Part shown: piece after piece, positions 54,856-64,000 of the stretch
Layout of the letters: each line of letters opens with the position of its first letter
Numbering within the stretch: the first letter of the stretch is position 1
DNA from: Syntrophales bacterium
GTDB lineage: Bacteria > Desulfobacterota > Syntrophia > Syntrophales > UBA2251
Assembly (NCBI GenBank): GCA_035358035.1
Contig: DAOPOS010000001.1
Span: 37,189 to 101,188 of the forward strand
Direction: 5' to 3'
Length of the DNA: 64,000 bases
Made by a program: the position numbers and the translations under genes
The notes under the pieces: model-generated
What the model saw: only the letters and a program-made list of their open reading frames with translations
The model's database searches: none
Told to the model about the DNA's origin: nothing

Positions 54856-55374
54856 ATGAAGACCCTCCAAGGCCGGATCTGGACATTCGGCGACAATATC
54901 GATACGGACGCCATCATCCCGGCGCGCTACCTCAACACCTCAGACCCGGCCAGCCTCGCGGCGCACTGCATGGAGGACGCCGATCCGGACTTCATGAAAA
55001 AAATGAAACCGGGAGACATCCTCGTGGCGGGGGAAAATTTCGGCTGCGGCTCCTCCCGGGAGCACGCCCCCATCGCGCTCAAGGCGGCGGGCATCGCCTG
55101 CGTCGTCGCGAAGAGTTTTGCACGCATTTTCTACCGGAACGCCTTCAACATGGGCCTGCCGATCTTCGAATCGGGCGAACTGCACGACCGGGTGACCGAC
55201 GGGGACGAGATCGAGGTGGACGCGGACGCGGGCCGCATCCGGACCGTCCGGGGCGGCGGCGTCCTGGCGATCGAGCCGATCCCGCCCTTCATGCAGCAGC
55301 TCCTCACGGACGGGGGCCTGATGGGCCATCTCGCCCGGAAGGCGGCGGGGCGGGCGGAGAGGAGTCCCGCATGA
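54856..55374 (+). CDS. leuD: 3-isopropylmalate dehydratase small subunit
   Basis: [15 protein letters not shown] and [14 protein letters not shown] motifs. The ATG at 54856 lies 9 nt after AGGAG; the track start at 54847 abuts the SD. Confidence 0.9.
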
Positions 55375-56519
55375 CGGACCGACGCTTTCGCATCGCCGTT
55401 TTTCCCGGCGACGGCATCGGACCGGAGGTGATCCGGCAGGCCGTCCGCGTGCTGGAGATCGTCGCCCGCCGCACGGGCACGGCCCTGGACCTGACCGAGG
55501 GTCCGATCGGCGGCGCGGCGTATGACCGCTGCGGCACGCCGCTCCCCCCGGAGAGCCTCGAACAGGCGCTGGCGAGTGACGCCGTGCTCCTGGGCGCCGT
55601 GGGCGGGCCGTCCTGGGAGGCCCTTCCCTACGACGTCCGTCCGGAGCGGGCCCTCCTCGGCCTAAGGGAGCGGCTGGGACTCTTCGCGAACCTGCGTCCG
55701 GTTGTCGCCTTCGACGACCTGATCGACGCCTCGCCCCTGAAACCCGGGATCGTGCGCGGGACCGACATCCTGATCCTCCGGGAACTGACCGGCGACGTCT
55801 ACTTCGGACGGCCGCGGGGCATCCGGGTCGAGGACGGCCGGCGCGTCGGCGTCAACACGATGATCTATGCGGAGGAGGAGATCCGGCGCATTGCGCTGAA
55901 GGCCTTCGAGACCGCCCGCGGACGGCGGAAGGACGTGGTCTCGGTGGACAAGGCCAACGTCCTGGAGTCGACGGAACTCTGGCGGGACGTCGTCACGGAG
56001 GTCGGCCGGGGCTACCCGGACGTCGCCCTCCGGCACCTGTACGTCGACAACTGCGCGATGCAGCTCATCCTGAACCCCGCCCAGTTCGACGTGATCGTCA
56101 CGACGAACCTCTTCGGAGACATCCTGAGCGACGAGGCCGCCATGCTGACCGGTTCCATCGGCCTGCTCCCCTCGGCGAGCCTGGGGGACAGGCATGCCCT
56201 CTACGAACCGATCCACGGTTCGGCGCCCGACATCGCTGGGCAGGACCTGGCCAATCCCCTGGCCGCGATCCTCTCCGTCGCGATGATGCTGAAGCATTCC
56301 CTCGCGATGCCGGCGGAGGCCCGGCTTGTCGAAGCCGCGGTCGGTGAAGTTCTCCACCGGGGCTGGCGCACCCGCGACATCCATCGGGACGGCGCCACCC
56401 GGGTCGGCACGGCCGGGATGGGCGAGGAGGTCTGCCGGACCCTGGAAGGGCTGCTCACGGCCGTGAATGGACCCGAAGGGCGGGATGACGCGGGGAGGGG
56501 CGATTCGAGACCGTCATGA
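55371..56519 (+). CDS. leuB: 3-isopropylmalate dehydrogenase
   Basis: [13 protein letters not shown] and [26 protein letters not shown] motifs. ATGA overlap with leuD. Confidence 0.95.
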
Positions 56520-57082
56520 CGCCCCCCCTCCCGGACAGGATCCCCACGCGGGAAGAGTGCGACGCGCTCATGGCGCGGTATGCCATGCTGCCGAACATCG
56601 CAGCGCACTCCCGCCAGGTCATGCGCGTTTCCCTGGCGATCGCGGACCACCTGCAAAACGGCGTGTCCGTGAACCGGGACCTCGTGGTGGCGGCCGCCCT
56701 CCTGCACGACATCACGAAGACCCGGTCGCTCGAAACCCATGAGCGCCACGATGCCTCCGGCGGCGCGCTGCTGCGGGAGCTGGGATTTGCCCGCACGGCG
56801 GAGATCGTGGAACAGCATGTCCTCCTCCGGGATGTGGATCTGGACGGCGGGCTGGAGGAGCGGGAGATCGTGTGCTACGCCGACAAACGGGTGCGGCACG
56901 ACACCGTCGTGACCCTCGAGGAACGGATTCAGGACCTGATCGCGCGCTACGGCGACTCGGAGGAGATCCGCCGGCTGATCCGCGTCAACAGCAGCCAGGT
57001 CTTCGCCCTCGAGCGCAAGATCGCCGGCTTCATGACGGTCGGAATCGAGGAGGCCATCCGCAGCCAGGAGGACGCCGGCTAG
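56516..57082 (+). CDS. HD/HDIG-domain phosphohydrolase, translationally coupled to leuB
   Basis: AHSRQV..LLHDITK (H..HD) motif. ATGA overlap with the leuB stop. Confidence 0.75.
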
Positions 57083-57121
57083 GGATGCGGACCCTCGCAC
57101 CGGGCGCCGCGACCGAAAAAA

Positions 57122-57157
57122 TTGATTTTTTTCGAGGATGGACTATACTGCCTCGAA
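57122..57157 (+). promoter_or_regulatory. Sigma-70-like promoter TTGATT-N16-TATACT overlapped by the inverted repeat TTCGAGG-N13-CCTCGAA
   Basis: Hexamers at 57122-27 and 57144-49, with an upstream A6 tract. The IR arms at 57131-37 and 57151-57 bracket the -10 element. Confidence 0.5.
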
Positions 57158-57263
57158 GAGAAATGCAAACAGGCGGGGACGCGCACCCGCCGGGTGCTCC
57201 CGCCGGGATGCCGCCGCACCCCCGAACCTGCAAGCCAGCCCTCATCGTCTCAAGGAGGCCGTC

Positions 57264-58856
57264 ATGTCTTTAGCGGATCGCAACAATCCCTACAATTTCG
57301 ATGCATTTTTGGCCTGGCGTCAGGCGGTGGACTACTACGCCGCCGACGCCTTTATCCAGAAGGTCGTCCGCCATTTTACGGGAAGCGAAGCGGACAAGGT
57401 CGACGCGACAGCCCGCGCGGTCTCGCGGAAGGCCTCCTACCGCTGGCGGGACCTGGCCGAGCGGATTGCCCTGCCGGAGAACCGCCCGTTCATGATGCAC
57501 TACGACGGCCACCACCGCCGGATCGACCGCATCTGCCGCCCCGGGGAGACCGAGACCCTGGAGCGGGAGGTCTTCGCGGAGGCCTTCTTCTCGGACAAGA
57601 CCTCGCCTTGGGAGAAGCTCGTCAAGATGTACCTGATCTACCAGAACGGCGAGGCCTGCGTCGCCTGCCCGATCACCTGCACGGAAGGCCTCGTCATGCT
57701 CCTCGAGAAGTTCGCCGACACCCCCGAAACGAAGACCATCCTCGCGCACTGCAAGGAGGGCGATGCGGACGGCTGCGCCATCGGCGCGCAGTACCTGTCA
57801 GAGATCCAGGGCGGCTCGGACGTTCCGTCCAATCTCCTCGAGGCCGTCGAGGAGGACGGCGTCTGGCGGCTGTACGGGACGAAGTTCTTCTGCTCCGCCA
57901 CCCACGCCGACTACGCCGTCGTCACCGCCAAGCCGAAAGGCTCGGAGAAGGTCGGCCTGTTCGTCATCCCCTCCTGGCTGCCGGGGAACAAGGCGAAGGA
58001 GATCCGCAACGGCTACACCATCGACCGGATCAAGTGGAAGATCGGGACGAGCGAGCTGACCACGGGCGAGCTGACTTTCGACGGCGCCGTGGCCTATCCC
58101 GTGGGGCCGCTGGACAAGGGGGTCGCGAACGTCGTCGGGATCGTCCTGACCTATTCGCGCCTCACCGTGGGGCTCTCCGCGGCCGCCTTCATGACCCGGG
58201 CAGTCCGCGAGGCCAAGCAGTACGCGGAGTTCCGCGACGCCTTCGGGGTCACGATCGGCCGCTTCCCGATGGTGGCCGGCCAGCTCGCCGCCATCGACCA
58301 TGCGGCAAAGCGGACGACGGCCGGGGCCTTCAAGCTCTACCGGGACTTCCTCACGCTCGAGGGGGGCCTGAAGGGCGGACTCGACACCGGCGAGACGGAG
58401 GCGGCCTGGCGGAAGCGCTTCGTCATCCGGGAACTCATCATGCTCCAGAAGCTGGCCGCGTCGTGGGACTGCACGGACGTGATCCGCGCGGCCATGTCCA
58501 TCTTCGGCGGCCACGGCGTCATGGAGGACTTCTCCTGCCTCCCCCGCCTCTACCGGGATTCGGCCGTCAACGAGCTCTGGGAGGGGCCGCGCAACGTCCT
58601 GCTCACCCAGATCTTTCGGGACCTCCAGCGGGTGAAGGACCGGTACGCGCCGGCGGCCTTCGTCCGGGACCTCCTGGCCGGGCTGGAGGAGGCCGTCGTC
58701 GCGCCGCTCGCCGCGGAGGCCGGGGCGCTCCTCGCGCATCCGCACCTGTTCGGGATGGACACGGCCACCCTGGACGTCTGCCGACGCTGGGACGCCTTCT
58801 GCCACACCCTGACCCACGCCTACCAGGACCTCGCGTTCAAGGACGTGGAGGGATAG
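57264..58856 (+). CDS. AidB-like acyl-CoA dehydrogenase family protein
   Basis: ~530 aa with QYLSEIQGGSDV, FFCSA and IFGGHGVMEDFSCLPRLYRDSAVNELWEG motifs, as in AidB-type ACADs. AAGGAGG RBS upstream. Confidence 0.8.
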   Translation: MSLADRNNPYNFDAFLAWRQAVDYYAADAFIQKVVRHFTGSEADKVDATARAVSRKASYRWRDLAERIALPENRPFMMHYDGHHRRIDRICRPGETETLEREVFAEAFFSDKTSPWEKLVKMYLIYQNGEACVACPITCTEGLVMLLEKFADTPETKTILAHCKEGDADGCAIGAQYLSEIQGGSDVPSNLLEAVEEDGVWRLYGTKFFCSATHADYAVVTAKPKGSEKVGLFVIPSWLPGNKAKEIRNGYTIDRIKWKIGTSELTTGELTFDGAVAYPVGPLDKGVANVVGIVLTYSRLTVGLSAAAFMTRAVREAKQYAEFRDAFGVTIGRFPMVAGQLAAIDHAAKRTTAGAFKLYRDFLTLEGGLKGGLDTGETEAAWRKRFVIRELIMLQKLAASWDCTDVIRAAMSIFGGHGVMEDFSCLPRLYRDSAVNELWEGPRNVLLTQIFRDLQRVKDRYAPAAFVRDLLAGLEEAVVAPLAAEAGALLAHPHLFGMDTATLDVCRRWDAFCHTLTHAYQDLAFKDVEG

Positions 58857-58867
58857 GAACCGGCCCG

Positions 58868-59536
58868 ATGGCCCCCGTGACCGTTTTCCCGAGGATCGCG
58901 ATCGCGCCGCCCCGGACGGCGATCTACCGGCGCCTCGGCTTCCGGTCGGCCTCCACCCGGCTGTCGGAGGGGCAGCGCCGGGAGACGGAGGCGGCGATCG
59001 ACGCGGCCGCCGACCTGATCCGCCTCGCGGGGGCGTCGCGCCGCCTGGCCGTGGTCGAACGGGGGCCCGACCGGATCGTGCTGGACGGCGGGGCGGTGCT
59101 GGCGAGCCGCCGGCTGGCCGACTTCCTGGGCGCAAGCCGGGAGGTCCTGCTGATGGGGGCGACGGCCGGGGAGGCGATCATGGCGGCGATCCGCGCGGAC
59201 ATGGCCGAGGGGCGCGCCACCCGCGGCGTCGTCCTGGACGCGACGGCGAGCGAAATGACGGACGCCGCCCTGGACTGGATCGCGGCCGTCGAAAACCGCG
59301 CCCTGCGCCGGGAGGGACGCGCCCTCCTGACGGCGCGGTATTCGGCCGGCTACGGCGACCTCGACCTCGAACACCAGACGGTCTTTCACCGCCTCCTCGA
59401 ACTGGACCGGCTGGGGGTCTCCCTCACACCGAGCCGGATCCTCCTCCCCGAGAAATCCGTCACGGCGATCACCGGCCTGCGGGAGATCGCCGTCGAAACG
59501 CCCCGCGACGCGGCAACCCGAAACGAGCCGGTTTGA
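58868..59536 (+). CDS. Stand-alone protein resembling the methionine synthase (MetH) activation domain
   Basis: RYSAGYGDLDLEHQTVFHRLLELDRLGVSLTPSRILLPEKSVTAITG resembles the SPGYG..L..Q..LF motif block of the B12-dependent MetH activation domain, from memory. Confidence 0.55.
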   Translation: MAPVTVFPRIAIAPPRTAIYRRLGFRSASTRLSEGQRRETEAAIDAAADLIRLAGASRRLAVVERGPDRIVLDGGAVLASRRLADFLGASREVLLMGATAGEAIMAAIRADMAEGRATRGVVLDATASEMTDAALDWIAAVENRALRREGRALLTARYSAGYGDLDLEHQTVFHRLLELDRLGVSLTPSRILLPEKSVTAITGLREIAVETPRDAATRNEPV

Positions 59537-59789
59537 GGGGTATGGGCCGATCCGCGTCGGATCATAGGGAGACAACGATCCTGTGAATCGTGTTTGAACG
59601 TTTCTTCCCATCATCTCGCTTTTTGCTATTTTCATCAGAATGCACTCTTTTTAACAGCATTCATGAGAGGCGATATCTATCTGTCAGACAAATTTCATAG
59701 GTTATGCCAACTTGGCTCAAGCGGCACATTTCCACAAAATCCCAGTAGTGTCAAAAGCGAATTTAGCCTGATATTTAAACACGTTATTC

Positions 59790-59818
59790 TTTGCATTCTA
59801 TTCAATTAAGCGTAATAT
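59790..59818 (+). promoter_or_regulatory. Sigma-70-like promoter candidate TTTGCA-N17-TAATAT for the islet genes
   Basis: Hexamers read directly in an AT-rich region, about 60 nt upstream of the ATG at 59879. Confidence 0.4.
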
Positions 59819-59878
59819 GATCGCCGAAAATCGAAAATACCACGCAGGCATATTCATTGTTGGGCCACACAGACGGAA

Positions 59879-60178
59879 ATGACCCAGATCATCCGCGACT
59901 ATAGACTGTTACTGGAACAGGCCATTTTAGAGGCCAGGAATGCTGGGCTTGGTGAAGAAGCCGAGCAGTTGCAGAGCGCCGTATCGGCCGCGTTCACCAC
60001 GTCTTCAGAGCTTATTTCTGAACAGGGTGAAGCCATCCTGCGCTTTGTCAAAGCCACGCGCGGACGATTACCGGTCGGGGTAAAAGTCAAGCTTGGTGCG
60101 TGCCTGGCAGAGATCGGCAGGACGTGGTCCCCATATCGCCGATTCCTGGTCTGGGTGTACAGGAAATGGGTCTTATAA
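59879..60178 (+). CDS. Orphan 99-aa helical protein with a Trp/Arg-rich C-terminus
   Basis: Track ORF. Its stop lies inside the AAGGGAGG SD of the next ORF. The tail is RTWSPYRRFLVWVYRKWVL. No family recognised. Confidence 0.55.
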   Translation: MTQIIRDYRLLLEQAILEARNAGLGEEAEQLQSAVSAAFTTSSELISEQGEAILRFVKATRGRLPVGVKVKLGACLAEIGRTWSPYRRFLVWVYRKWVL

Positions 60179-60190
60179 GGGAGGATGTTG

Positions 60191-60436
60191 ATGTCCATGC
60201 TTAACGCGTCAATCTCATGCCCAAAATGCCGGAACACGTTGTCGATCCCCCTGGCTCAAATGGCACCCGGAAATCGCTATCCTTGTAAAAATTGCGGCGA
60301 GGTTATGACGTTCGCCGGGCAGGACGCCAGCAAGATCGAGGAGATTGTCAACCAGTTGGGCACCCAATTTTCAGGCGTCTCGGTGAAGGTGAAAATAGAG
60401 AAGAAGCGGCCGTGGTGGAAATTCTGGAGGGCATAA
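60191..60436 (+). CDS. Orphan small zinc-ribbon protein with a Trp/Lys-rich C-terminus
   Basis: CPKC-x19-CKNC zinc ribbon. The tail is KKRPWWKFWRA. The ATG at 60191 lies 6 nt after AAGGGAGG; the track start is 60185. Confidence 0.6.
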   Translation: MSMLNASISCPKCRNTLSIPLAQMAPGNRYPCKNCGEVMTFAGQDASKIEEIVNQLGTQFSGVSVKVKIEKKRPWWKFWRA

Positions 60437-60609
60437 GGGCCTGACCGGGTCATGCACCAGATCGCCGCAACAGCTCGGCTCCTGGCGATGCCGGGCTTTA
60501 CAAGCTTTCAATCCGTAATATTTTGCCAAAATGGCGTGTCGTCCTTCACCCTGTGAAGGTGTAGCAAGTCAAAATCATTGGGGGTTCAGCCGCCATATCC
60601 ATTCAAAGA

Positions 60610-61506
60610 ATGAGGCACCTTCAAGTTGTCACCGGGAAGGACCTTTGCCCAATGCCATATCGTCATGCCAGCAATACAGCCTACGGAACATTATTCATGC
60701 GGGGGGTGCATCAGCTGCTGGACGATAAGCCTTTGATTCTGGATGATCCCGTTGCCCTTACACTGCTGGGAGAGGACACCGTCCGTCAGATCAAAAACAC
60801 CCGTGATCATCATCAGGCATTGGAAGCACGCGCATTGCGCACGCACGTTGTTGTACGTTCGCGTTTTACCGAAGACCGCCTGGCGGAAGCGGTCGGCCGG
60901 GGGATCAGGCAATATGTGATCCTGGGAGCGGGATTCGACACCTTCGCTTATAGACAACCCGTCTGGGCAAAAGAGCTAAAAATATTTGAAGTCGATCAGC
61001 CGGAAACCCAGGCTCTAAAAAGGTTGCAGTTGAAGCGGGCAGGCATTTCACCCCCGCCAAATCTTAGCTTTGTCAGTATCGACTTTGAGCATGAATCCTT
61101 AGGCGAGGGACTCCAGCGCAATCGCGTATCGTTTGCGGAACCGTCTTTCTTTTCCTGGCTGGGCGTTACCATGTATCTTAAAGAAAATGCCATTGATGCC
61201 GTGCTGCGAACCATCGCTCAATTTCCGAAAGAAAGCGAAGTCGTATTCACTTTCGCCAAGCCGCCGGATACCTTATCCGCCCATGAAAGAAGCATTCATG
61301 CCTCTTTATCCAAGATTGTCACCGGTGCTGGAGAACCATTTGTCAGTTTTTTTACCCACGCAACAATCGAAATAAAACTGCGCCAGGCAGGTTATAAGCA
61401 CATTGCGTTTCTCTCCAAGGAAGAAGCAGAAGAACGATACTTCTGTCAACGTTCATCGGATCTGTACATCCCCAGGCGTTCTACCATTGCCTGTGCATCG
61501 CTTTGA
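60610..61506 (+). CDS. Class I SAM-dependent O-methyltransferase (LCMT/TIGR00027-like family)
   Basis: VILGAGFDTFAYR, FEVDQPETQALK and FFSWLGVTMYL motifs. An alternative start exists at 60652. Confidence 0.8.
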   Translation: MRHLQVVTGKDLCPMPYRHASNTAYGTLFMRGVHQLLDDKPLILDDPVALTLLGEDTVRQIKNTRDHHQALEARALRTHVVVRSRFTEDRLAEAVGRGIRQYVILGAGFDTFAYRQPVWAKELKIFEVDQPETQALKRLQLKRAGISPPPNLSFVSIDFEHESLGEGLQRNRVSFAEPSFFSWLGVTMYLKENAIDAVLRTIAQFPKESEVVFTFAKPPDTLSAHERSIHASLSKIVTGAGEPFVSFFTHATIEIKLRQAGYKHIAFLSKEEAEERYFCQRSSDLYIPRRSTIACASL

Positions 61507-61587
61507 TAATATCGTCAAGGCGTTTCAAAATCAGGGGCGGGCGACGCCATCCTCGTCGGAGGGGCGCACCCATCGCGCCCGGCGATC

Positions 61588-62277
61588 TTACCCTGCGTCC
61601 TTTCCCTGCTCGGCGAGTGCCTCCAGACGGTCGCGGTCGAGCAGCCGGAGACGGGGGCCGTCCTCCTCCACCAGTCCCTTGCGCTTCAGGGTTCCCAACG
61701 CGCGGGACAGCGATTCCGGCCCCGTGCCCAGGAGGTTGGCGAGCCGCGCCTTGGAGAGGTTCAGCGCAACGACGTCCCGGTCCCCCTGCTCCCGGGAAAG
61801 GTGAAGCAGGTGGGCGGCCAGACGCCCCGGGATTTCCCGGAGCGACAGGTTCTCGACCTGGAGGGTGAACTCCCGGAGACGCATCGCGAGCAGGGCCAGC
61901 AGGTTCATCGTCAAGGACGGTTTGCCGGTGATCATCCGGACAAACCGTTGCCGTTCGAAGAACAGCAGGTGGCTCCGGGCGATCGCCCGGGCGTTGGCCG
62001 GGAACGATTTTCCGGAAAAGACGGGAACGGCGCCTAAGGTCTCGCCCTCCTTCACGATATGGAGGATCTGCTCTTTCCCGTCGGGGGAGAGCTTGTACAC
62101 GTTGACACTTCCCGAGGCGACGAGGTAAAATCCTATTCCCTCGTCTCCGTCGGCAAAGATGACCTCCCCCTGCTCGTAACGCCTGTCGACCGCGATCTTC
62201 TCGACCTCGGCGAGGTGCTCCTCGGGCAGCCCCCCGAACAGTTGGCTCTTCGTCAGGATGTCGCGTGTGTTTCGCAT
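61588..62277 (-). CDS. hcpR: Crp/Fnr-family transcription regulator, HcpR-like by context
   Basis: cNMP-binding fold plus a C-terminal HTH (SKARLANLLGTGPESLSRALGTLKRKG). It is divergent from hcp, with a TTGAC-N4-GTCAA box in between. Confidence 0.75.
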   Translation of the reverse strand: MRNTRDILTKSQLFGGLPEEHLAEVEKIAVDRRYEQGEVIFADGDEGIGFYLVASGSVNVYKLSPDGKEQILHIVKEGETLGAVPVFSGKSFPANARAIARSHLLFFERQRFVRMITGKPSLTMNLLALLAMRLREFTLQVENLSLREIPGRLAAHLLHLSREQGDRDVVALNLSKARLANLLGTGPESLSRALGTLKRKGLVEEDGPRLRLLDRDRLEALAEQGKDAG

Positions 62278-62313
62278 GGATGACGCCCTTTGAGGCGGAA
62301 CTATATCGGCTTC

Positions 62314-62327
62314 TTGACATAAGTCAA
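62314..62327. promoter_or_regulatory. Perfect Fnr/HcpR-type palindrome TTGACATAAGTCAA
   Basis: Read directly. Its centre lies about 73 nt upstream of the hcp ATG, and the box begins 37 nt upstream of the hcpR ATG. Confidence 0.7.
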
Positions 62328-62393
62328 GGACGCGCGTGGACGGTTCAAGTTATATGAACGCAAAAACATCGATTCGGAGAAAGGGGGTTTCAC

Positions 62394-64000
62394 ATGTTCT
62401 GCTTTCAGTGTCAGGAAACCGTGAAGAATGAAGGCTGCGGCGTCCGGGGGGTGTGCGGGAAGACGGAGGAAACCGCGAATCTGCAGGATTTGCTGATCCA
62501 TGTCCTGAAAGGGATCGCCCTCTATGCCGAGAAGGCCGGACAGAAGGGTTTGCTGGACCGCCGCTACGGGCGCTTTGTCACGGAGGCGCTATTCGCGACG
62601 ATCACCAACGTGAACTTCGACAACGACCGGATCACGGCGCTCATCCGCGAGGCGCTCGCCGTGCGGGACGCGCTGAAGGAGAGCTGCCGGGCGGACGCGC
62701 AGGACGTCCGGCACGATGCGGCCGTGTGGTTTTCCGACGATGCCGGTGAATTCGCGAAGAAGGCCGCCGAGGTCGGCATCCTGTCCATGGACGATGCGGA
62801 CGTCCGTTCGCTCAGCATGCTTCTGATCTACGGCCTCAAGGGCATCTCCGCCTACGCGGAGCACGCCGCCGTGCTGGGCTTCGAGGACGAAACGATTGAC
62901 CGCTTTCTCATGGAGGCGCTGGCGTCGACGACCCGGGATCTTAGCGTCGAGGACCGGGTCGCCCTGGTCATGCGCGCCGGGGAATGCGCCGTCCGCGTCA
63001 TGGCGCTTCTGGACAAGGCGAACACGACCACCTACGGGAACCCCGAGATGTCCCGGGTCCGGATCGGTGTCCGGGGCAACCCGGGCATCCTGATTTCCGG
63101 CCACGACCTGAAGGACCTGGAGGAGCTCCTGAAACAGACGGAGGGGACCGGCGTGGACGTCTACACGCACGGCGAGATGCTGCCGGCGAACAGCTATCCG
63201 GCGTTCAAAACCTACGCCCACTTCGCGGGCAATTACGGTAACGCCTGGTGGCGGCAGGCGGAGGAATTCGCGTCCTTCAACGGCCCGATCCTGATGACGA
63301 CCAACTGCCTCATCCCGGTCAAGGAGGCCTACCAGAACCGGATCTTCACCACGGGCGTCGTGGGCTACCCCGGGCTGAAACACATCTCCGACCGGCCCCG
63401 GGGCGGGAGGAAGGATTTCTCGGAAATCATCGCGCTGGCCAAGACGTGCGCGCCGCCGACGGAGATCGAGACCGGCGAACTGGTGACGGGCTTCGGCCAT
63501 CATCAGGTGCTGGCCCTGGCCGACCGGGTGGTGGACGCGGTGAAGTCGGGCGCCATCAAGCGCTTCATCGTCATGGCCGGCTGCGACGGCCGCCACAAGA
63601 CGCGCGGCTACTACACCGACGTCGCCCGCGCGCTTCCCCCGGACACGGTCATCCTGACGGCGGGCTGCGCCAAGTACCGCTACAACAAGCTGGCCCTGGG
63701 CGACATCGGCGGAATCCCCCGGGTGCTGGACGCCGGGCAGTGCAACGATTGCTACTCGCTGGCCGTGATCGCGCTGAAATTGAAGGAGGCCTTCGGGCTG
63801 AACGACATCAACGAACTGCCGATCTCCTTCGACATCGCCTGGTACGAGCAGAAGGCGGTGGCGGTGCTGCTGGCGCTGCTTCATCTGGGCGTGAAGGGCA
63901 TCCGCCTCGGCCCGACGCTGCCGGCGTTCGTATCGCCGAACGTCCTCAAGGTCCTGGTGGAAAATTTCAACATCCGGCCGATCACGGACGTGGGGACGGA
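62394..64000 (+). CDS. hcp: Hybrid cluster protein / hydroxylamine reductase (3' end outside window)
   Basis: It is not in the track because no stop falls in the window. The translation from 62394 is [23 protein letters not shown].., the canonical Hcp N-terminal Cys motif. The frame stays open to 64000. Confidence 0.9.

Follow-up and report, generated by a model that had tools for sequence, protein, structure and literature searches.

A low-GC islet in a high-GC Syntrophaceae genome, probably composed of unrelated accessory units

The low-GC islet described here, found in a high-GC Syntrophaceae genome close to UBA2251, is in our view likely to be an ordinary composite of horizontally acquired accessory DNA, built from at least two unrelated units, rather than a coherent defence or toxin cassette. 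It appears to sit in a variable junction between the gene p222 and an hcpR-hcp-fdx-metH block. According to our proposal, the first unit would be the gene pair orf1-orf2, representing the split form of an uncatalogued module in which a helical domain of ~90 aa is followed by a zinc ribbon and which in other organisms may be fused to transmembrane segments. The second unit would be a stand-alone TIGR00027/LCM-fold methyltransferase that belongs to a common family and presumably brought along a 70-nt leader of its own. At the left edge, a third slot seems to be exchangeable: in the sister lineage it harbours a DJ-1/PfpI gene, here a putatively non-coding filler of 228 nt. In its present state, the islet would represent neither a mobile element nor a recognisable defence system. 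Positions refer to the window, i.e. the whole 64,000-nt stretch of DNA that was analysed; the features are as follows:

58868-59536, plus strand: p222, the left flank gene (222 aa, host-type GC3 of 0.92), weakly resembling a MetH activation domain
59537-59634, plus strand: conserved left junction (98 nt, GC 0.49), ending in ...GCTATTTTCA
59635-59862, no strand assigned: AT-rich filler (228 nt, GC 0.38), lineage-specific, without a convincing gene
59879-60178, plus strand: orf1 (99 aa), all-helical, with the motif (A/F)TTSSEL..EQG..I
60191-60436, plus strand: orf2 (81 aa), with a zinc ribbon (CxxC...CxxC) at the N-terminus, followed by a helix and a conserved tail (KRPWWKFW)
60579-60651, plus strand: 5' leader of the methyltransferase, conserved and including a GGAAGGA ribosome-binding site
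60652-61506, plus strand: class I SAM-dependent methyltransferase of the LCM fold (PF04072, TIGR00027; 284 aa, GC 0.50, GC3 0.51)
61511-61577, no strand assigned: right junction, lineage-specific (from BLAST breakpoints and alignment)
61588-62277, minus strand: right flank gene, an HcpR-like regulator of the Crp/Fnr family (PF00027 and PF13545) with a host-type GC3 of 0.83

Composition and origin

The mean GC content is 0.502 in the islet (59537-61510) versus 0.668 in the remaining window. With its length of about 2 kb, the islet is the sole dip of this kind in 64 kb; all other 1-kb bins have a GC content of at least 0.60. An initial annotation had reported an abrupt fall in GC after the stop codon of the left flank gene at 59536 and a recovery just past the methyltransferase stop codon at 61506. 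Both stop positions are correct, and a 300-nt profile confirms both transitions (0.70-0.79 up to 59549, 0.40-0.55 across 59550-61499 and 0.68 again from 61500). Codon usage, proposed as a check together with sliding-window GC, deviates as well: GC3 amounts to 0.63 in orf1, 0.70 in orf2 and 0.51 in the methyltransferase (islet range 0.51-0.71), compared with 0.83-0.93 in six flanking genes, and the breaks in GC and GC3 coincide exactly with gene boundaries. ORF calls and Pfam/NCBIfam searches recovered all three genes that had been annotated, namely two small ORFs and an LCMT/TIGR00027-type methyltransferase, closely spaced and co-directional on the plus strand. The AT-rich leader of ~340 nt exists as described (342 nt, 59537-59878, GC 0.42). 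Its supposed own promoter is unconfirmed because a consensus scan matched no sigma-70-like site within the leader; the only such match in intergenic DNA of the islet is located in the spacer between orf2 and the methyltransferase (60497-60524).

The proposed horizontal acquisition is well supported by the deviant composition, by methyltransferase homologs located on contigs of low GC content (0.41-0.47) and by the direct adjacency of p222 and metH, which many distant relatives show. Homologs of the methyltransferase with identities of 86%, 81%, 76%, 75% and 70% are encoded on contigs whose flanks have a GC content of 0.41-0.51. Among core proteins, identity to other Syntrophales is only 45-55% for p222 and 50-66% for MetH. 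In addition, the GC content of the methyltransferase gene is nearly constant among its hosts (0.47-0.53), whatever the GC content of the host. The donor of this gene was probably a low-GC relative within the Syntrophales. One might argue that the region is native and old, with genes ancestral to the lineage and a GC content lowered by weak selection or low expression, since all close relatives found have the islet at this site, with unchanged composition, and it carries no mobility genes. We nevertheless consider this very improbable: the GC3 values lie far beyond the spread of neighbouring genes, the methyltransferase is much nearer to homologs from low-GC genomes than the core proteins are, its GC content is independent of the host, and p222 stands directly beside metH in many distant relatives.

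The islet occurs at this site in the sister lineage too, whose flanks are 94-96% identical at the nucleotide level. Between the two lineages, dS amounts to 0.099 (methyltransferase) and 0.142 (orf1) within the islet and to 0.077-0.176 in flank genes. As islet and flank dS match, the acquisition would predate the split of the two lineages (dS ~0.1), followed presumably by vertical inheritance and piecemeal remodelling.

The insertion site

The left flank gene p222 yields weak matches to PF02965/TIGR02082. It is directly followed by metH (gap of ~90 nt) in about 35 of 65 related genomes, and in 13 others of the 65 the gap between p222 and metH is filled with unrelated genes. Because p222 abuts metH in many distant relatives, we regard the islet site as a variable junction. 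The comparison with relatives that had been recommended for this site thus finds the islet in the sister lineage and the uninterrupted gene pair in more distant genomes. The description of the islet as inserted between core genes has to be qualified on its right side, where hcpR-hcp-fdx also falls within the p222-metH adjacency of many genomes. The right junction measures ~67 nt here versus ~186 AT-rich nt in the sister lineage.

The HcpR-like gene is divergent from hcp, with Prismane and ferredoxin genes adjoining. The only good HcpR-type box, TTGACATAAGTCAA, is found at 62314-62327 between hcpR and hcp. Upstream of the islet genes no such box was found, and their membership in an HcpR regulon was rejected on the grounds of this location of the sole good box.

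orf1 and orf2

Remote-homology searches and structure predictions, as suggested for the two small proteins, resulted in a five-helix AF2 model for orf1 (pLDDT 74) without a fold match in the PDB, and in a zinc ribbon for orf2, modelled with strands at residues 5-40 and a helix at 43-59 (AF2, pLDDT 60). The orf1 family comprises 6 homolog clusters according to a word-index search, and 136 clusters at E<=1e-3 when full HMMER searches are used. orf1 falls into none of the families of Pfam, NCBIfam, PADLOC and PHROGs; 51 family members compared with Pfam gave no match besides fused zinc ribbons, a profile search of the family against PDB sequences retrieved nothing, and nothing was found in plasmid, phage and viral-contig searches. 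For orf2, which starts 12 nt after orf1 and has a GGGAGG ribosome-binding site 7 nt upstream, we obtained weak zinc-ribbon matches (Pfam, NCBIfam) and 4 homolog clusters. In the sister lineage orf1 is intact (dN/dS 0.51), and orf2 is frameshifted by a 2-nt insertion in at least six independent assemblies, with a dN/dS of 1.1 downstream of the frameshift.

Judging from the sequences, orf1 and orf2 are probably one unit, because zinc ribbons and membrane segments are fused to, or encoded next to, some members of the orf1 family. In one locus (L088) an orf1 homolog is followed by a protein with a zinc ribbon and a transmembrane region, the ribbon of which aligns to orf2 (hhalign probability 92.7%). 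The orf1 domain is fused to zinc ribbons in two proteins (P0157, P0260) and to multi-pass membrane regions in two others (P0149, P0156). Among the 136 clusters, the link to zinc ribbons is confined to the adjacency in L088 and the fusions in P0157 and P0260; most members of the family appear solitary. Outside the genus, L088 is the single case with an orf2-like partner among 16 orf1-homolog contexts. Other neighbours of orf1 homologs are unrelated genes, among them transposase, PIN, MazF-like, GNAT, YdjM and alpha/beta hydrolase genes. As a guess, the pair might act as a small membrane-proximal adaptor or sensor.

Some membrane-anchored regulators, such as zinc-binding anti-sigma factors, combine a cytoplasmic helical domain with a zinc-binding element. 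The order of helical domain, zinc ribbon and transmembrane region in some orf1-family members is reminiscent of these factors, a likeness that concerns architecture only. In contrast to them, the orf1 family matches no known family in sequence or fold, its helical domain shows no HxxxCxxC motif in the alignment, and no sigma-factor gene is evident beside the members inspected by eye. As a by-product, the analysis delimits a small family absent from Pfam, whose fusions tie it to zinc ribbons and membrane regions.

The left edge and the search for mobility marks

The left junction is common to three lineages and aligns with the sister lineage (L007/L008) and with UBA2251 (L013) at 85-88%. From one breakpoint after ...ATTTTCA, the three lineages continue with three different sequences: the filler in the window, the DJ-1/PfpI gene of the sister lineage and, in UBA2251 (L013), a sequence unrelated to either. 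The filler is also present in strain L083 (97.8% identical to the window). Window and sister sequences rejoin at one common point, 16 nt before orf1. A 71-aa ORF starting with TTG in the filler has no Pfam or PHROG match, and the filler itself has none in Rfam, plasmids or viral contigs. For the whole 342-nt leader, which includes the filler, the fold z-score is +0.59. Simple decay does not account for an identical left breakpoint in three lineages, and this counts against the composite that we favour.

No tRNA was detected in the whole 64-kb window and no integrase either, every gene in 55371-64000 being assigned to other families. The only repeat placed at the boundaries comprises 12 nt (11/12 match, at 59550 and 61549). 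It was rejected as a target duplication and is read as a chance near-repeat, because the segment holding its right copy is specific to the window and missing from the sister lineage. Apart from this, the earlier observation that integrase, tRNA and flanking direct repeats are missing holds true. An Rfam scan (E<=1) revealed no riboswitch or sRNA in the islet, and the two long spacers (59537-59878 and 60437-60651), when folded, show no unusual stability. Core pairs of attC sites (R''/R', RYYYAAC ... GTTRRRY, 50-160 nt apart) are absent from both strands of 59400-61700, with a mean of 0.35 in shuffled sequences. PADLOC-DB 2.0 gave no match at E<=0.1 for any of the three islet proteins or for the DJ-1 protein of the sister lineage; likewise, no meaningful match was returned by a PHROGs scan of the islet proteins. 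A defence or phage origin was rejected on the basis of these two scans. With classical genomic islands the islet shares the abrupt compositional break, the accessory genes and the restriction to a narrow lineage. It differs from them in its size of only 2 kb, in the absence of integrase, tRNA, direct repeats and other mobility genes, and in being fixed and vertically inherited in the sampled lineages.

One cassette or several units

The initial annotation had suggested that the three genes might form a defence, toxin or modification module. Accessory systems often combine an enzyme with an adjoining pair of small proteins, and the genes are co-directional, closely spaced, of foreign composition and retained together in two lineages. 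That they constitute one functional cassette, in which the small proteins would target or regulate the methyltransferase, for example in accessory defence, nonetheless appears improbable. Co-occurrence elsewhere had been named beforehand as the test that could refute such a module: neither orf1 nor orf2 was present in any of the five contexts of methyltransferase homologs (70-86% identical), and the methyltransferase in none of the 16 orf1 contexts outside the genus, although a looser linkage could escape so small a sample, which includes many short contigs, several ending within 200 nt of the gene. Furthermore, orf2 is frameshifted in the sister lineage while the methyltransferase is still under purifying selection (dN/dS 0.29 versus the sister), and it is for this reason, together with the lack of co-occurrence, that the single-module reading fails. 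A spacer of 215 nt (60437-60651) separates the methyltransferase, with its own conserved leader and ribosome-binding site, from orf2; GC3 is unequal among the three genes, and the PADLOC search was negative for all of them as well as for the DJ-1 protein. Considering that the genes are co-directional, tightly spaced and kept together in both lineages of the genus, a locally evolved functional coupling is possible. Similarly, we see little probability that orf1-orf2 is a pair of the type II toxin-antitoxin kind that hitch-hiked into a variable region with the methyltransferase as a bystander. Two small genes 12 nt apart would fit, as would the sporadic and rare occurrence of the orf1 family and the fact that homologs in variable regions have PIN, MazF-like and transposase genes nearby. 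On the other hand, neither protein has a known toxin or antitoxin domain (Pfam, NCBIfam, PADLOC, PHROGs), 15 of the 16 orf1 contexts are devoid of an orf2-like partner, the sister lineage has lost orf2 and kept an intact orf1, and fusions to zinc ribbons or multi-pass membrane regions are more in line with a single multi-domain protein.

The precise exchange in the left slot would find an explanation if the islet had been left behind by an array of integron-type cassettes or by some other site-specific element. In favour of this are the three sequences starting at one breakpoint, the common rejoining point of window and sister, and the short, co-directional and apparently promoter-poor genes. 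Given the absence of attC core pairs from 59400-61700, of integrase, tRNA or terminal inverted repeats, and of unusual secondary structure in the spacers, we attach hardly any probability to it. Somewhat less remote, but still unlikely, is a joint reading in which orf1-orf2 would be an unrecognised sporadic module with its own function and the left edge a genuine site-specific exchange point. Such a module, made up of a TTSSEL-motif helical domain and a zinc ribbon, would be encoded by a pair of small genes or by a single gene for a membrane-anchored fusion protein, and might serve for instance as a membrane-proximal sensor or adaptor moving through variable regions; the slot would have received three inserts at one breakpoint without a known recombination signal. 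On the composite reading that we prefer, the islet matters little beyond annotation; the case shows that an islet defined by its composition may turn out to be a mosaic of independent acquisitions, and that neighbourhood comparison quickly separates a mosaic from a cassette.

The methyltransferase

The methyltransferase matches Pfam PF04072 with 166.2 bits (cutoff 22.3, E 9.7e-49) and NCBIfam TIGR00027 with 164.7 bits (cutoff 93.55, E 2.7e-48), the latter over profile positions 2-257 of 259, and has more than 6000 homologs at E<=1e-20. An alternative start at ATG 60610 was rejected, as it is not conserved in homologs, unlike ATG 60652 and the ribosome-binding site. The leader accompanies the gene in other hosts, being 84% and 76% identical to the upstream regions in L081 and L078, respectively. 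It (60579-60651) corresponds to no known RNA family, and the whole 215-nt spacer has no unusual fold. An apparent degradation of the gene in L006 was set aside, the contig coverage being ~1x.

OPCMT_like enzymes of the LCM fold (PF04072, IPR007213, TIGR00027) are small-molecule carboxyl methyltransferases of ~300 aa (Lin et al., PNAS 2023, PMC10193983). The islet enzyme is of similar length and belongs to the same Pfam and NCBIfam families as ML2640c, Rv0731c and MnMT2-6 (PMC10193983). The nearest solved structures are those of ML2640 and Rv0731c, with ~32% identity over 136 aligned residues. Tyr/Phe194 (ML2640c numbering) is the landmark that fixes the substrate carboxylate (PMC10193983); Tyr175 of the window protein aligns with this tyrosine of ML2640 ('...EGLLMYL') and is invariant in 34 clade members. 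Equivalents of the SAM-contacting Arg90, the glycine-rich GAG loop (Ala113/Gly115), Asp135 (EVDQP) and Asp164 (IDF) align as well. Unlike in ML2640c, the position of the SAM-contacting Glu189 is a gap or Leu170, within the invariant FFSWLGVTMYL (SWLG) motif of the Syntrophales clade. As to the landmark Thr20, the HMMER alignments to ML2640 begin at residue 53, with the N-terminal helical domain outside them. A near-invariant Thr9 lies 8 residues before an invariant Arg17, equalling the distance between Thr20 and Arg28 (PMC10193983), a correspondence in spacing alone. From its family membership, the enzyme most likely methyl-esterifies a small carboxylic acid, as characterised OPCMT_like enzymes do. 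As a further difference from the OPCMT_like enzymes named above, the recurrent neighbours of the Syntrophales clade are ABC-2 transporter genes (three of the five contexts of methyltransferase homologs) and not steroid-catabolism genes. We hypothesise that a Syntrophales OPCMT-like clade beside ABC-2 genes may hint at a methyl-esterification coupled to export in syntrophs that degrade fatty acids and aromatic acids.

Base composition and gene content

The window contains a single dip in base composition: GC content is 0.502 from 59537 to 61510 compared with 0.668 across the remainder, and 1-kb bins elsewhere in the 64 kb never fall below 0.60. In 300-nt windows, GC lies between 0.70 and 0.79 until the stop codon of the left flank gene, p222, at 59536, drops to 0.40-0.55 as far as 61499 and is 0.68 again from 61500. 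GC at third codon positions (GC3) is 0.63 in orf1, 0.70 in orf2 and 0.51 in the methyltransferase gene, as against 0.83-0.93 in six neighbours (leuB, an HD-domain gene, an acyl-CoA dehydrogenase gene, p222, hcpR and hcp). The sharp break in the 300-nt profile and the GC3 gap to the flanks confirm the abrupt low-GC islet described in the initial annotation, and its proposed horizontal origin is well supported. Two very long spurious reading frames (804 and 445 aa) run across the acyl-CoA dehydrogenase gene and p222 (57122-59536, and 57798-59135 on the reverse strand); they are the usual artefact of coding sequence with 90% GC3 and no real genes.

The two small ORFs and the LCM/TIGR00027-type methyltransferase gene were all found as initially described:

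Genes of the islet
orf1, 59879-60178, 99 aa; no match in Pfam or NCBIfam
orf2, best start at 60191 with a GGGAGG site ahead, 81 aa; CxxC...CxxC zinc ribbon, weak matches
methyltransferase gene, 60652-61506, 284 aa; PF04072 (LCM) 9.7e-49, TIGR00027 2.7e-48

For the methyltransferase, seven homologs conserve the ATG at 60652 as the start, and an alternative ATG at 60610 was rejected for this reason. As had been noted before, tRNAs are absent, here across the whole window, and so is an integrase among the neighbouring genes. A promoter candidate had been assigned to the 342-nt leader, where a consensus scan revealed no sigma-70-like promoter, so the candidate is unconfirmed. The islet has no attC-like core pairs and no Rfam families at E<=1, the predicted folding of leader and spacer is not unusually stable, and orf1 is absent from plasmid and phage collections.

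A variable junction with remodelled edges

The product of p222 (222 aa) weakly resembles the activation domain of MetH. A protein of the MAG 'Syntrophaceae bacterium UBA2251' shares 97% identity with it, and the next relatives, from Smithella, Syntrophus and other Syntrophales, share only 45-55%. Of the 65 related genomes recovered, about 35 have the metH core gene within ~90 nt after p222, and 13 others have a p222-metH gap of 1-8 kb with unrelated genes, e.g. for response-regulator/PAS proteins. In the window organism metH follows p222 at a distance of 5.4 kb, a stretch taken up by the islet, hcpR (reverse strand), hcp and a ferredoxin gene. Since the content of this gap differs among genomes, the islet occupies a junction that is variable across the order. 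The earlier statement that it was inserted between core genes thus holds in part: the right-hand neighbours are host-like in composition, yet they too lie inside the variable p222-metH junction. In the about 35 of 65 Syntrophales and other genomes (among loci L014-L077) where a metH core gene directly follows p222 (58868-59536 in the window), this metH has no activation domain, which suggests a split methionine synthase with p222 as the stand-alone part.

Six independent assemblies (L007-L012) and a seventh of low coverage (L006) represent a sister lineage; its flanks are 94-96% identical to those of the window, and its islet occupies the same site with 93.5% identity. Synonymous divergence (dS) between the two is 0.099 for the methyltransferase gene and 0.142 for orf1, similar to the flank genes (p222 0.077, acyl-CoA dehydrogenase 0.114, hcpR 0.176); the islet was therefore already in place before the two lineages split and has been passed on vertically from then on. 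The genes differ in selection, with dN/dS ratios of 0.29 for the methyltransferase gene and 0.51 for orf1. In the sister orf2, a 2-nt insertion breaks the frame just after the first CxxC, and dN/dS is 1.11 downstream of it.

The conserved left junction comprises 98 nt and ends in ...GCTATTTTCA. What follows differs: 228 nt with 38% GC and no convincing gene in the window and in L083, a 97.8%-identical strain; a complete DJ-1/PfpI gene including its ribosome-binding site in the sister lineage; and a third unrelated AT-rich sequence, within which the contig ends, in UBA2251 (L013). The breakpoint after ...ATTTTCA that these three closely related lineages share lies at 59634/59635 in the window, 2856/2857 in L007 and about 10768 in L013, and no recombination signal was found. 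This coincidence of three different inserts at one breakpoint is one of two residual curiosities. The right junction measures ~67 nt in the window and ~186 nt in the sister lineage.

The methyltransferase

More than 6000 homologs were found at E<=1e-20, with identity declining smoothly from 86%; named sources include Smithella, Syntrophaceae and Desulfomonilia MAGs, and on large plasmids the family reaches at most 50% identity. Among solved structures, ML2640 of M. leprae (E 4e-11) and Rv0731c of M. tuberculosis come closest; both are 'OPCMT_like' small-molecule carboxyl methyltransferases with a broad carboxylic-acid scope and the named landmarks Thr20 and Tyr/Phe194 (Lin et al., PNAS 2023, PMC10193983). 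In the window protein, residues equivalent to Arg90, the glycine-rich loop, Asp135, Asp164 and Tyr194 align. Its Thr9 and Arg17 are spaced like Thr20 and Arg28, but the N-terminal region did not align. Where characterised OPCMT_like enzymes have the SAM-contacting Glu189, it has Leu or a gap, within the motif FFSWLGVTMYL (residues 166-175) that is invariant in the Syntrophales clade. Its most likely activity would be the SAM-dependent conversion of a small carboxylic acid to its methyl ester.

Five homolog contexts were read (86, 81, 76, 75 and 70% identity). Flank GC is 0.41-0.51 there and that of the gene itself 0.47-0.53. ABC-2 transporter genes adjoin the homolog in three of the five and a DUF4442 gene lies upstream in two; the window gene has neither neighbour. 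The loci concerned (75-86% identity) are:

Methyltransferase homolog loci with ABC-2/DUF4442 neighbours
L078, 6001-8448
L079, 5461-9287
L081, 303-2269

The recurrent ABC-2 neighbours suggest a possible link of the methyltransferase to export. A 5' leader of ~70 nt including the ribosome-binding site is common to the window and two homolog loci, so the gene moves together with its own upstream region.

One cassette or a patchwork?

orf1 encodes a real protein: its family comprises 136 clusters at E<=1e-3 and 54 at E<=1e-10 among 1.84 billion representative proteins, with a length of ~85-100 aa and a near-invariant TTSSE motif. The AlphaFold model is a five-helix bundle (pLDDT 74) that matches no PDB fold significantly (best E 0.6), and the family profile matched neither PDB sequences nor Pfam. 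In the structure predicted for orf2, residues 5-40 form a zinc ribbon, after which come a helix and a tail of low confidence with a conserved terminal KRPWWKFW. At locus L088, an orf1 homolog (44% identity) precedes a 301-aa protein that begins with a zinc ribbon, matched to orf2 by hhalign (probability 92.7%, 42% identity, 36 columns), and goes on with transmembrane segments. Fused proteins of the orf1 family combine the orf1 domain with a zinc ribbon and a membrane region (P0157), an orf1-like domain with two zinc ribbons (P0260), or the orf1 domain directly with multi-pass membrane regions (P0149, P0156). This uncatalogued family with its zinc-ribbon and membrane fusions is the other residual curiosity. 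The L088 pair and these fusions suggest that orf1-orf2 is a split version of a module, often membrane-acting, in which a helical domain is combined with a zinc ribbon; the link is moderate at best because most family members appear solitary. A toxin-antitoxin pair is a possible reading of the two adjacent genes, but nothing was found that positively supports it.

The initial annotation had read the trio as one cassette, possibly a defence, toxin or modification module. Neither gene calls nor tblastn detected orf1, orf2 or the DJ-1 gene in any of the five methyltransferase contexts, and in 16 contexts of orf1 homologs outside this genus the methyltransferase never occurred. The neighbours there include YdjM, a GNAT protein, REP-type and IS3 transposases, a PIN protein, a MazF-like protein and an alpha/beta hydrolase, some of them named by eye from translations without a family scan. 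PADLOC and PHROGs returned nothing for any of the proteins. By the refuting criterion given in the initial annotation, a lack of co-occurrence elsewhere, the three-gene cassette is refuted within the sample available. Rather than a three-gene defence, toxin or modification cassette, the islet is best seen as a composite patch, small and fixed, whose accessory genes were acquired; it lies in a variable junction, is now undergoing piecemeal remodelling and is a further instance of a familiar type of feature.

The hcpR-hcp region

Between the divergent hcpR and hcp genes, a perfect palindrome, TTGACATAAGTCAA, is located at 62314-62327. It is the only exact TTGA-N6-TCAA (HcpR-type) sequence in the 64 kb, with none upstream of the islet genes, and is probably the operator of the Crp/Fnr-family regulator. 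The hybrid-cluster protein gene hcp is intact in the window; that of the sister lineage has a 1-nt deletion (GTCCTG to GT-CTG; L007 6205-6360 versus window 62394-62520) that truncates the reading frame after 37 codons. This change was checked in L007, L010 and L006, and L008, L009 and L012 give the same split gene call.
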